Part shown: piece after piece, positions 9,001 through 12,000 of the stretch | How the letters are laid out: the number at the start of each line of letters is the position of its first letter | Numbering within the stretch: position 1 is the stretch's first letter | Program-made: the position numbers | Source of the DNA: Escherichia coli | Lineage (GTDB): Bacteria; Pseudomonadota; Gammaproteobacteria; Enterobacterales; Enterobacteriaceae | NCBI RefSeq assembly: GCF_030013595.1 | Contig: NZ_CP122768.1 | Strand: one strand, 5' to 3' | Length of the DNA: 64,000 bases

Positions 9001-12000
9001 CAGATATAAAAATGGAAAAGTGGCGTGGTGAAAACACCAGGCCGTAGCAGAAGGCTATTCTGGAGAGTTAATTTTTCATTTCGGGCGTCGGATAAACAGC
9101 CAGATAAACGTAACCACAACTGCTGAGGGTATCGGCTTTGCAGGTCAGCCCTTTTGCATACAGCGTGACGGTATGCTGATGGCGGGGATTCAGTTCACCG
9201 CTGGTGAGCATGAGTTCCAGTTGTTTCATCAGCAGCGGAAAGGCCTGGTCCAGGTGGTACGCATCTGCATCGCTGAACAGGCCTCTGATACCGGCGCGGT
9301 CGGCAAGGTAATGCAACCGGTTACCCTCCTGCACCAGACGTGCCCCGAAACAGGGCGTCACGGTGCAGGGCAGCCCCCACTAGGGGCGGTCGTGATTGTC
9401 GTCGGGAAGTGTTGTCCCGGGGAGTGTGTCTGACACGATAAAATCCTTACAGAAAATCGGCTAAGAATGGTCCGGTAGTGGCGATAATTCTGCTCATCAG
9501 AATTCCCACTCAGTTCAGGGTGACGCTCATCAGCCGGACATACGGACCAAAACTGTCCTTACGGCGTTCAGCAAACACGGCCAGCACACCGGGAATATCC
9601 TGCACTTCACGACCGGTATACGCTTCAGCACTGCCGTGCCAGCGGTATTTACCGGTACAGAACGGAAAAAGACGGGATGTCGGATGTTGTTGGTGAATAC
9701 GCATGGCTTCACCACGGGTGATAATTTTCATAATGGGATACCTCTGAAGACAGAAGATAAAAGTGAAAACAGGTGTGATGTGGTTGTGAAGGGTTAAAGC
9801 AGACCATGTTCGGCAAAGGAGAAAACCTGGTTGCCACCGACTATCAGATGGTCCGGCACCCGGATATCCACCAGGCCCAGTGCCTGTACCAGACGTTCGG
9901 TGATAAGCCGGTCTGCCTTACTGGGTGTGACTTCACCGGACGGGTGATTGTGTGCCAGTACCACGGCAGCGGCATTGTGGTACAGGGCGCGTTTAATCAC
10001 TTCCCGGGGATGGACTTCCGTGCGGTTGATGGTGCCGGTGAAGAGGGTTTCACCGGCAATCAGCTGATTCTGGTTGTTCAGATACAGCACCCGGAATTCT
10101 TCACGCTCCAGTCCCGCCATGTTCAGAATCAGCCATTCCCGTGCTGCACGGGTGGAGGTGAAGGCCACGCCGGGTTCATGAAGATGGCGGTCCAGGGTTT
10201 TCAGAGCCCGCAGAATGAGGCTGCGCTCGCCGGGCGTCATCTCTCCGGGCAGAAAGGAAAGTTGTTGCATTGTGCTTCTCTCCATTCAGTCGATGATGCG
10301 CATAATGGCGCTGCATTCCGGATGCTGCAGGGCGTAATCCCGCAACCGGTAATAATGGACCGTCATGGCATAATTCTCCGTACGACAGGCATGATGACTG
10401 TACGTCATCAGACAGGCGGCAATACCGGCGGCTTCCGGGCTCATTTCTGCGCGGTTACCGTTCATGGCACTGAACAGTACCCATGTTTCGTCATCATCGT
10501 CATCCGGTTCGGGTGCCATAAATGCCCCGCCGTTGTTCAGGGTGTACAGATTCCAGATACCACCGCAGTAGTCTTCGCACAGACGGTCCATCCAGCCGAA
10601 GACACGGGGCTCCAGGGTCACCCACTGTGGAATGAGGCCAAAATGCTGCGGCCAGAAGCTGATGCGCTGTTCATCAGGGACGAGGCTGGCAACCAACTGA
10701 GACGGATTATTCTCTGGTGTTGTAGCTGAATAAATTGTGGGGGTATTCTGAGAAACGGTCTTCATGAGATAACTCCTTAAATAACAAATAAATGTGTGTT
10801 TTTCAGGAACGAAAGCTGAATGATTCCCTCACTCAGGGAAACGGCATCAGCGCAGGCTCTCCAGCATCGTTTCTGCCATCACCCACAATGCGCGGTTGAG
10901 CTTAATGTCGGTATCAATGCTGTGAATGGCCCGGGTATGGATACGTTTTCCTCTGGCACTGCGCCCGGAAATCCCGCCTTTCAGCATATTCTCCTGGATG
11001 GTCTGATAAGCACTCCACAGGTCCTTACCGTAATCCTCCCGGCGTCGCGGCGTCAGAATGTCGGCGGTGGTGACGGGCTGATGTTCGTCACCATAACGGT
11101 AAGTCAGTGCCGCCTGTGCCAGCGCCTGGCGTGCCGGTGGCGGCAGGACCAGCGACTGCATGGCATCACGCTTCTCCTCTATCCGGTCAAACACGCCCAC
11201 CACCTCGTAAGCCCCTTCAATGACTCTGTCCACCACATTTCCCCGGTGCGGAACACGTACTTCCCCCAGAGACTGACCACAGACGCAGCCGTTCTGGCAG
11301 ACGAACCTGAAGTACCCCGGCAGCATCTGGTAGCTGGAGGTACCGTCATGAGAGTTGAGCAGAATAATTTCAGGGACATGTTCTCCGTTTATCTCTCCGG
11401 CCCGCCGCAGACGCAGCATGTGTTTTGTGTATCCCCGGCGGCCCGGGTCGCGCACACGGGTCTGGCAGGCGAAGAATGGCTGAAAGCCTTCCCGCTGCAG
11501 GCTTTCCAGTACGGTGATGGTGGGGATGTACGTATAGTTCTGGCTTCGGGACGTGTGTTTATCTTCCCCGAAAATCCCCGGCACATAGTGCATCAGTTCT
11601 TCGTGTGTCAGCGGACGGTCACGGCGTATCTGGTTCGCATAACCAAAACGACTGGCTAGTCGCATAATTTGCTCCTTATCGGTGGTTAAGATTTACTGGT
11701 GTAATAAATGAAAAAGCCACGTCTCCCGGAGAAGACGCGGCCTGATGGGTGAAATGAATGACGTTTATTGTCTGAGAAGACCGTCACTGGCGAGCCGCGT
11801 ATTAAGCACCTTTCCGGCATCGGGTTCAGAATTCCGGCAGCGCCAGCGTCGCTGACCTTCCGCGTTGCGGATAACCAGACGGAAATGCATTCCCGGGTCA
11901 TCCTGGATAAACACATTGCGGTAAGCGGTTATGACAGCAACCGCCTGCCCGTATGAGAAAGATCCTTCAGCCAGGACATACTCTGTGTAACCCGGCATAT

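Follow-up and report, generated by a model that had tools for sequence, protein, structure and literature searches.

An amber codon in the type IV antitoxin gene cbeA of Escherichia coli beside an intact cbtA toxin gene: a probably tolerated natural allele

Introduction

The CbtA/CbeA (YeeV/YeeU) pair of the cryptic prophage CP4-44 of Escherichia coli K-12 is a type IV toxin-antitoxin module, in which the antitoxin CbeA acts on FtsZ and MreB and not on the toxin (summarized in PMC5624674). The features that define this type, i.e., the lack of a toxin-antitoxin complex and of autoregulation by the antitoxin, are known for the K-12 orthologues (PMC5371832; PMC5624674). Two further pairs, YpjF/YfjZ of CP4-57 and YkfI/YafW of CP4-6, belong to the same Pfam families as CbtA/CbeA, and their antitoxins YfjZ and YafW cross-neutralise CbtA (PMC5371832). 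Toxin and antitoxin genes of the K-12 family are transcribed at a low level and are not autoregulated, and a triple deletion of yafW, yfjZ and cbeA left growth and viability unaffected, a tolerance of antitoxin loss shown for K-12 under laboratory conditions only (PMC5371832).

Here we describe a cbeA gene that is interrupted by an amber codon whereas the adjacent toxin gene is intact, and we analyze how this allele is distributed, how it may have arisen and why it may persist.

Results

The cbeA gene carries an amber codon at position 19

The DNA analyzed was a stretch of 64,000 nucleotides of the E. coli contig NZ_CP122768.1, called the window in the following. It resembles K-12 CP4-44 in the gene order yeeS-yeeT-cbeA-cbtA-yeeW, in an identical CbtA protein and in the common neighbourhood of tmaR/yeeX, yeeA, sbmC, dacD and sbcB, but at codon 19 of cbeA it has TAG where K-12 has TGG (Table 1). 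The upstream part of the island encodes a hypothetical protein of 840 amino acids, an IrmA-family protein, DUF905 and DUF932 proteins and antirestriction proteins, a content that presumably differs from that of K-12 CP4-44. Translation of the minus strand confirmed two proposals of an earlier sequence-only reading of this DNA, namely that the gene is cbeA/yeeU and that TAG takes the place of the first Trp of a Trp-Trp pair. The native GTG start codon (9436..9434) is also the start assigned by RefSeq to the intact allele (WP_001285585.1), and the anti-Shine-Dalgarno duplex calculated for UGUAAGGAU at this codon has a dG of -5.9 with a spacing of 6 nt.

Table 1. Features of the cbeA-cbtA locus (window coordinates).
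Feature	Position	Strand	Details
yeeW, short DUF5983 form	8414..8608	-	4-nt overlap with the end of cbtA
cbtA, toxin gene	8605..8979	-	intact, 124 aa
Post-amber in-frame remainder of cbeA	9068..9379	-	103 codons and TAA (9070..9068)
Candidate restart ORF from GTG (Val26)	9068..9361	-	97 aa, putative translation
RefSeq/PGAP model in amber-allele genomes, CTG (Leu22) start	9068..9373	-	101 aa, WP_044863316.1
Amber codon TAG replacing Trp19 (TGG), codon 19	9382..9380	-	altered base 9381
Mutated Dcm site	9380..9384	-	CCTAG, wild type CCTGG (CCWGG); Dcm-site scan of the TGG-restored gene
cbeA 5' fragment	9380..9436	-	GTG start and 17 sense codons (VSDTLPGTTLPDDNHDRP), then amber
Shine-Dalgarno-like TAAGGA 5' of the native GTG	9444..9449	-	
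yeeT (DUF987)	9510..9731	-	upstream gene, same orientation
yeeS (RadC/JAB domain)	9794..10270	-	farther upstream, same orientation

When the stop codon was read as Trp, the deduced protein showed a single mismatch (G108 versus D) to the YeeU/CbeA structure 2h28_A over residues 2-122 (E=1e-83), and its residues 18-117 corresponded to positions 1-100 of the 101 positions of PF06154 (E=5e-53). The remainder behind the amber contains nearly the entire Pfam CbeA_antitoxin domain, and the ORF of 97 aa within it still covers model positions 9-100 of 101 (E=2e-48); an unbroken frame through the conserved W-G-L motif is absent owing to the TAG codon. Apart from the stop, the sequence is almost identical to a known gene, so that chance can be excluded. 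The frame is a cbeA allele by descent, from which full-length protein is impossible without suppression. Within 8400..10400 (2001 nt), the window differs from strain 2013C-4538, which has an intact cbeA, at position 9381 only (A in the window, G there), in agreement with the proposed single transition from TGG to TAG.

The cbtA ORF begins 88 nt past the cbeA stop codon. As had been noted before, the toxin gene is intact: its 124 codons encode a complete CbtA_toxin domain (PF06755, positions 1-112 of 112, E=4e-58), and the protein is 100% identical to the K-12 CbtA reference and to WP_000854814.1, which is the CbtA of both TAG and TGG genomes. An NCBIfam scan gave no model for CbeA, CbtA or YeeW. 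Neither the YpjF/YfjZ nor the YkfI/YafW paralogues are present in the 64-kb window, and one weak match to the CbeA/CbtA pair elsewhere (48878..48762, 32% over 50 aa, E=0.005) was taken as chance.

The amber allele occurs in several genetic backgrounds

The amber allele at Trp19 (W19am) was found in 42 of 5,426 complete E. coli genomes (about 1%), from many hosts and many countries and with one chromosomal copy each, and also in many draft assemblies and one metagenome scaffold. It occurs on the background of the window, on the same background with a synonymous change (C24C, cq9 group), and on backgrounds of the C29F type, the F54S/H61P/H86N/T98A/K100E type and the H86T type. It is further present on an L006-type background, a separate paralogous module that encodes a different toxin and is adjacent to IS110, and in draft assemblies on an L023-type background, a further module without a match in the complete genomes. 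Four W19am backgrounds have intact TGG twins. These data indicate that W19am is a segregating natural polymorphism and not a one-off error.

A sequencing error, one of the options raised before, is thus very unlikely as a general explanation, given the complete genomes, drafts and metagenome contigs and the variants linked to the allele in a lineage-specific manner, such as C29F, which never occurs together with TGG. For the window alone, TAG might be a nanopore-only basecalling artefact, with Dcm 5-methylcytosine read as T in a true TGG codon. The substitution falls on the very cytosine that is methylated in a CCWGG motif, and about 70% of the consensus errors in nanopore data were located at Dcm motifs when the default models of 2019 were used (PMC6591954). 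Such an artefact is therefore conceivable for this single assembly. However, the 4 kb common to the window and its TGG twin contain 11 Dcm sites, 10 of which are unchanged in the window, and over its 64 kb the window has 135 CCWGG motifs, which argues against a general erosion of these sites, and an amber in the adjacent codon, which is not part of a Dcm site, is comparably common. Together with the recurrence of W19am in the other genomes, this leaves only a slim chance that the codon in the window is TGG.

The mutation lies in a Dcm site

On the plus strand, CCAGG of the TGG twin is CTAGG in the window; T has replaced the internal cytosine, which is the methylated one. Deamination of 5-methylcytosine on the strand opposite to the coding strand would give exactly this TGG-to-TAG change. 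That Dcm (CCWGG) sites are hot spots of nonsense mutation was reportedly first recognized among lacI ambers by Coulondre, Miller and colleagues in 1978. As in lacI, a C-to-T change at the internal C of CCAGG creates TAG in cbeA, and the second Dcm site of cbeA segregates an amber as well (Q64am, 20 genomes). Unlike the lacI hot spots, the cbeA case is a natural polymorphism across genomes and not a measured mutation spectrum, and the amber at the next codon, a non-Dcm site, is about as common (W20am, 25 genomes). The non-Dcm mid-domain ambers Q36am and Q87am were found in 0 genomes each. Since these numbers count genomes and not independent events, the comparison of Dcm sites (42 and 20) with non-Dcm sites (25, 0, and 0) is only suggestive. 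W20am, intended as a negative control, was positive. Ambers of this kind hence do not require a hot spot, and the Dcm hot spot was rejected as a sufficient explanation. It concerns the chemistry of the origin; the persistence of the allele is not explained by it. For the occurrence on several backgrounds, recurrent mutation would be the most economical explanation, with short-tract gene conversion as the alternative.

The toxin gene and the post-amber reading frame are intact in the W19am genomes inspected

The toxin gene was intact in all 22 W19am genomes checked, comprising 19 of the CP4-44 type, all with cbtA, and three of the L006 type, each with its own CbtA-family toxin. No secondary lesion was detected in the post-amber ORF of any W19am genome inspected. 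An intact toxin gene and a lesion-free ORF are also compatible with a restart product that functions, or simply with a young allele. In the W20am genomes sampled, cbtA was frameshifted, as expected of a decaying module.

The substitutions F54S, H61P, H86N/T, T98A, and K100E, which several amber lineages have at conserved positions, were considered as signs of relaxed constraint after the amber mutation. In an exact look-up, the Trp-restored full-length versions turned out to be common intact alleles (at least 1000 contigs), which means that these substitutions pre-date the amber, and the idea was rejected except for C29F. This substitution affects a nearly invariant residue and has no intact TGG twin among about 15 billion proteins.

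Translational restart and suppression as alternative explanations

Restart after early nonsense codons is classical, with the restart polypeptides of E. coli lacI and phage T4 rIIB as examples. As in these cases, the early stop of cbeA is followed by an in-frame GTG, here at a distance of 19 nt, and this GTG is preceded by a purine-rich tract; unlike in lacI and rIIB, the restart and the activity of its product are putative. Ribosomes terminating at UAG might resume at GTG 9361 or, following the RefSeq model, at CTG 9373, and form a CbeA of 97-101 aa that still protects FtsZ and MreB. The activities expected of a CbeA/YeeU antitoxin are neutralisation of CbtA toxicity and promotion of FtsZ/MreB bundling. 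The amber is position 2 of the Pfam domain, so that the loss would be limited to a non-conserved extension of 17 residues and three to seven residues of the domain, and a UGGGGG run with anti-Shine-Dalgarno complementarity is located 11 nt 5' of GTG 9361. The long N-terminal extension of CbeA is dispensable to judge from YfjZ; YfjZ starts five residues before the conserved WGL, whereas any restart product of the window would start after it. The uninterrupted ORF and the intact cbtA in the W19am genomes inspected are in favour of a working fragment, as is the greater frequency of the N-terminal ambers W19am and W20am (42 and 25 genomes) compared to the mid-domain ones (20, 0, and 0). A low-confidence AlphaFold2 model (mean pLDDT 58.8, residues 1-31 below 50) places all secondary-structure elements from residue 30 on, while being uninformative on whether W20-T25 are structural.

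The sequence-only reading had described 97 open codons behind the stop, which is correct for the ORF from GTG 9361; after the stop itself, 103 in-frame sense codons follow. Its suggestion of a truncated antitoxin made from a downstream start agrees with the presence of this GTG, but the residues lost are conserved or invariant in the family. Both restart products lack W20 and G21, and that from GTG 9361 also lacks L22. In an alignment of 27 homologues, at least 90% of the sequences have W20 and all have G21 and L22; every one starts upstream of W20, and family members naturally starting farther downstream, which had been named as a finding that would refute the interruption, were not among them (0 of 27). 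CTG serves very poorly as a start codon, and its distance from the G-run is unsuitable. A further GTG lies out of frame across the end of the stop codon (UAGUG, 9380); it opens a frame for a peptide of 19 aa and would compete for restarting ribosomes. C29F in one amber lineage and the frameshifted cbtA of the W20am genomes sampled also speak against a protective fragment, and viability can be explained without it (PMC5371832). The RefSeq protein WP_044863316.1 is assigned to W20am genomes, too, and therefore represents a rescue by model fitting and not evidence of expression. In view of these arguments we consider a restart product with sufficient activity unlikely. Even less probable appears a variant of this idea, in which W19am and W20am are low-output antitoxin alleles, restart at GTG 9361 yields a small quantity of truncated but active CbeA, and the Dcm hot spot allows lineages to switch the ratio of antitoxin to toxin in both directions through mutation and reversion. 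If true, such switching would also set the point at which CbtA causes growth arrest or biofilm formation.

Amber is the stop codon most readily suppressed in E. coli, and full-length CbeA might still arise if a suppressor tRNA decodes the codon or if ribosomes naturally read through it. supE-type glnV alleles with a CUA anticodon are present in 156 of 5,426 genomes, but among the 60 of these that were examined, which for the most part are derivatives of K-12 or laboratory strains, no amber-allele strain occurs. The inspection of suppressor tRNA genes, which had been recommended, covered the window: serU has the wild-type anticodon CGA and hence is not supD, and the other four tRNAs are tRNAs for Asn. 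Basal read-through of UAG typically is well below 1%. Altogether, a full-length CbeA made by suppression or read-through is extremely improbable.

Discussion

The best explanation of the locus, to which we assign a probability of roughly 0.75, is that the CP4-44-type cryptic-prophage island beside yeeA-tmaR carries a naturally segregating W19 amber, which abolishes or weakens the antitoxin and is tolerated. Most likely, antitoxin function is absent or strongly reduced and the allele is nearly neutral. It would have originated by a G-to-A change in the coding strand (C-to-T in the plus strand) at the methylated cytosine of the Dcm site, and it presumably persists beside an intact cbtA because the antitoxin is dispensable under ordinary conditions. 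Several properties may contribute to this. The cbeA-cbtA module probably is weakly transcribed. Autoregulation of the operon and sequestration of the toxin are not among the functions of CbeA, so that its loss should neither de-repress nor release CbtA. Furthermore, most strains are likely to hold paralogous YeeU-family antitoxins that could cross-neutralise CbtA. This back-up is not universal, as the chromosome of the amber-allele strain YF-1 has no other detectable YeeU-family gene.

The premature stop may, in addition, reduce cbtA expression by Rho-dependent polarity. The mRNA between the amber and cbtA is C-rich and G-poor, and the coding strand of this interval yielded no candidate for a sigma-70-like promoter. 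Some ribosomes may restart at GTG 9361 and produce the fragment of 97 aa, whose activity is doubtful. Among the three options put forward before, a toxin that is unopposed or silenced is best supported, in line with the missing growth phenotype of the K-12 triple antitoxin deletion (PMC5371832), and is unremarkable. A literature search for truncated or pseudogenised yeeU revealed nothing relevant.

Two practical points concern annotation and sequencing. RefSeq annotates the amber-interrupted cbeA as a 101-aa protein with a CTG start and without a pseudogene flag; this entry, WP_044863316.1, is found on at least 1000 contigs and covers two different nonsense alleles. As a result, surveys of intact versus orphan toxin-antitoxin pairs will miscount such cases. 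C-to-T changes at CCWGG sites in nanopore-only assemblies need confirmation at the level of reads.

The biological significance of the allele itself is small. It adds support from natural populations to the dispensability of YeeU-family antitoxins observed in the laboratory with the toxins intact, and it fits the doubts whether the pairs of cryptic prophages are classical addiction modules.

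An amber codon interrupts cbeA beside an intact toxin gene

Read on the minus strand from its GTG start, the antitoxin gene cbeA (yeeU) gives VSDTLPGTTLPDDNHDRP followed by TAG in place of the TGG codon for Trp19 (W19am), after which 103 codons remain open. With Trp restored, the product showed one mismatch to the solved E. coli YeeU/CbeA structure 2h28 over aligned residues 2-122 (E=1e-83). The adjacent cbtA encodes a complete toxin, matching Pfam CbtA_toxin over positions 1-112 of 112 and 100% identical to the K-12 CbtA reference. The minus-strand reading and the two matches bear out the sequence-only reading of an amber-interrupted cbeA next to an intact cbtA. 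Comparison of window 8400..10400 with strain 2013C-4538, which carries an intact cbeA (WP_001285585.1), revealed a sole difference in 2001 nt, A in the window and G in 2013C-4538 on the coding strand, confirming the proposed single transition from TGG to TAG. The toxin accession WP_000854814.1 is common to amber and intact genomes.

The module lies in a CP4-44-type island adjoining tmaR/yeeX, yeeA, sbmC, dacD and sbcB, with the gene order agn43, large hypothetical protein, IrmA-family, DUF905, DUF932, antirestriction, yeeS, yeeT, cbeA, cbtA, yeeW. The end of the island on the yeeW side is already decayed. The tRNA set of the window is consistent with the E. coli asnT/W/U/V-serU region next to the CP4-44 insertion site. 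A second CbeA-like site, a weak tblastn match (32% identity over 50 aa, E=0.005), was taken as chance.

Coordinates of features in the window and, where a locus is named, in other genomes or contigs
Feature	Position	Strand	Remark
cbeA start codon (GTG)	9436	-	
W19am codon (TAG)	9382..9380	-	differs from 2013C-4538 at 9381
cbeA stop codon (TAA)	9070..9068	-	
cbtA	8979..8605	-	
First in-frame GTG after W19am	9361	-	Val26; 97-aa ORF
WP_044863316.1	9068..9373; L013 and L014, 2524..2829	- (window)	RefSeq/PGAP 101-aa CTG-start protein; no pseudogene flag
Out-of-frame GTG ORF	9323..9380	-	19 codons; present in wild-type sequence too, probably meaningless
Terminator-like hairpin	9021..9039	-	TGGTGTTTTCACCACGCCA, then weak T-run; in 88-nt cbeA-cbtA spacer
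Region downstream of yeeW	7617..8340		only fragments annotated in matching genomes: partial DUF957 gene, partial transposase, 60-aa EutP/PduV-family remnant
840-aa ORF	12608..15130	-	between agn43 and IrmA-family gene; several predicted hydrophobic segments; only "hypothetical protein" in matching genomes
tRNA genes	41076..60846		four tRNA-Asn(GTT), one tRNA-Ser(CGA) (serU)
Second CbeA-like site	48762..48878	-	rejected
Frameshifted cbtA, W20am genomes	L013 and L014, 2918..3291		
Other 5'-end cbeA lesions	L025, L028, L031, around 626..700		

W19am is a segregating allele

The megablast query (28-base seed) against other strains was a 35-mer with the mutant base at its centre; since every 28-base seed in it spans this base, only amber-allele sequences can match. 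W19am recurred in 42 of 5,426 complete E. coli genomes, with one chromosomal copy each; the strains originate, across several continents, from humans, pigs, cattle, poultry, dogs, a giant panda, rivers, soil and a cave. In a large protein collection, the ORFs drawn by gene callers after the stop occurred in a 101-aa form (at least 1000 contigs) and a 97-aa form (84 contigs, among them a metagenome scaffold and contigs of draft assemblies that carry the identical TAG). W19am is a segregating allele rather than a private error. Nanopore consensus errors arose mainly at Dcm motifs (PMC6591954), and 5-methylcytosine misread as T would produce exactly this change; however, over the 4 kb common to the window and 2013C-4538, 10 out of 11 Dcm sites are unchanged, the 64-kb window contains 135 CCWGG motifs, and W19am is found in many assemblies, inherited with lineage-linked variants. 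A basecalling artefact is thus very unlikely.

Among the inspected amber genomes, the allele was present on many backgrounds, which points to repeated origin or to its spread from copy to copy through short tracts of gene conversion; the two are not separable here because roughly 90-185 nt around the TAG are identical among backgrounds.

Backgrounds carrying W19am in the inspected amber genomes
Background	Examples	Intact TGG twin
Window haplotype	OW1E2, ECGC74, JE86-ST05	yes, 1 difference/2001 nt
Window haplotype + synonymous C24C	cq9 group, five genomes	
C29F, divergent upstream yeeT/radC segment	TUM18780, DETEC-C31, WEC	none among about 15 billion proteins
F54S/H61P/H86N/T98A/K100E	JP538, FDAARGOS_1373, MS 21-1	yes, at least 1000 contigs
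F54S/H61P/H86T/T98A/K100E	SCU-172, MSB1_4I	yes, 4 contigs
L006-type: different paralogous module, other CbtA-family toxin, 162-aa DUF5983, IS110 neighbour	FHI_NMBU_11, JNEC-KY202	yes, 7 genomes, 1 difference in 521 nt
L023-type: further module	draft and metagenome assemblies only	

Codon 19 lies in an ancestral Dcm site

The ancestral sequence at codon 19 is CC-TGG, a Dcm site (CCWGG), at which deamination of the opposite-strand 5-methylcytosine would convert TGG to TAG. Such deamination is reportedly the classical cause of the amber hot spots in lacI. Only eight single-transition nonsense changes are possible in cbeA, five of which were searched across the 5,426 genomes. The N-terminal W19am (Dcm site) and W20am (no Dcm site) were found in 42 and 25 genomes, the mid-domain Q64am (Dcm site) in 20, and the mid-domain Q36am and Q87am (no Dcm site) in none. 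W20am, intended as negative control for the Dcm effect, failed as such. These numbers, which are counts of genomes and not of events, are suggestive of an extra mutation supply at Dcm sites together with better survival of very early stops.

Restart downstream of the amber codon

The Pfam domain comprises residues 18-117, so that W19am falls on domain position 2 behind a non-conserved extension of 17 residues. The first in-frame GTG follows 19 nt downstream of the stop and is preceded, at a distance of 11 nt, by a UGGGGG run able to pair with the anti-Shine-Dalgarno sequence; the 97-aa product would span domain positions 9-100 of 101. A functional truncated antitoxin made by restart is nevertheless unlikely. 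Among 27 aligned family members, with identities down to 66%, G21 and L22 never vary and W20 hardly does; homologues naturally starting downstream of W20, for which the sequence-only reading had allowed, were absent from this alignment, the shortest member (YfjZ) starting five residues before W20. Moreover, an out-of-frame GTG overlapping the stop (UAGUG) would compete for restarting ribosomes. The RefSeq CTG start reflects a protein-model fit and not expression, since W19am and W20am genomes share one 101-aa accession. The quality of the AlphaFold model was too low to inform on the truncated antitoxin.

Other 5'-end cbeA lesions, which look like frameshifts or rearrangements close to the start codon, also leave an identical 97-aa ORF; in L028 the lesion includes a junction to phage Mu-like baseplate genes, and L025 and L028 carry a toxin gene shortened to 87 aa.

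Loss of the antitoxin appears to be tolerated

Full-length CbeA might still be formed by amber suppression, as 156 genomes carry supE-type glnV alleles. This is extremely improbable: the check for suppressor tRNAs proposed from the sequence found none among the five window tRNAs (serU has the wild-type anticodon, the others being tRNA-Asn), and the 60 of these 156 genomes that were listed, most of them K-12 or laboratory derivatives, include no amber-allele strain.

In K-12, triple deletion of the antitoxin genes yafW, yfjZ and cbeA left growth and viability unaffected, toxin and antitoxin genes are weakly transcribed relative to relBE, and CbtA is neutralised by YafW and YfjZ (Wen et al., PMC5371832). 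Antitoxin deletion left toxin mRNA unchanged, indicating that there is no autoregulation (PMC5371832), and CbeA stabilises FtsZ and MreB assemblies rather than binding the toxin (Heller et al. summary, PMC5624674); loss of CbeA should therefore neither release nor de-repress CbtA. All 22 W19am genomes checked retain an intact toxin gene (cbtA in 19 CP4-44-type, a different CbtA-family toxin in three L006-type genomes). Most amber-allele genomes contain 2-8 YeeU-family loci, but in the YF-1 chromosome the amber cbeA is the only one, so that paralogue back-up is common and not required. The adjacent toxin was intact in two of three sampled Q64am genomes, and cbtA was frameshifted in both sampled W20am genomes (L73, AMSCJX02). 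Together, these lesions resemble the usual range of decay in a cryptic-prophage module.

Between the stop and cbtA, the coding strand has no predicted sigma-70-like promoter, and the roughly 400 nt that would stay untranslated include C-rich, G-poor stretches (C/G ratios 1.3-1.9), which makes a Rho-dependent drop in cbtA expression plausible. Such polarity would further blunt any cost of antitoxin loss. The spacer hairpin could also attenuate toxin transcription; a scan of the region found six terminator-like sites versus 2.3 +/- 1.5 expected.

W19am is a real, common and probably near-neutral nonsense polymorphism of a well-known type IV toxin-antitoxin module. Textbook Dcm-site chemistry accounts for how it arose, and published genetics for why it is tolerated. 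As a useful by-product, W19am and W20am loci proved to be recorded as shortened proteins, whereas Q64am copies are flagged as "internal stop" pseudogenes. Annotation-based counts of intact CbeA/CbtA pairs will be inflated.
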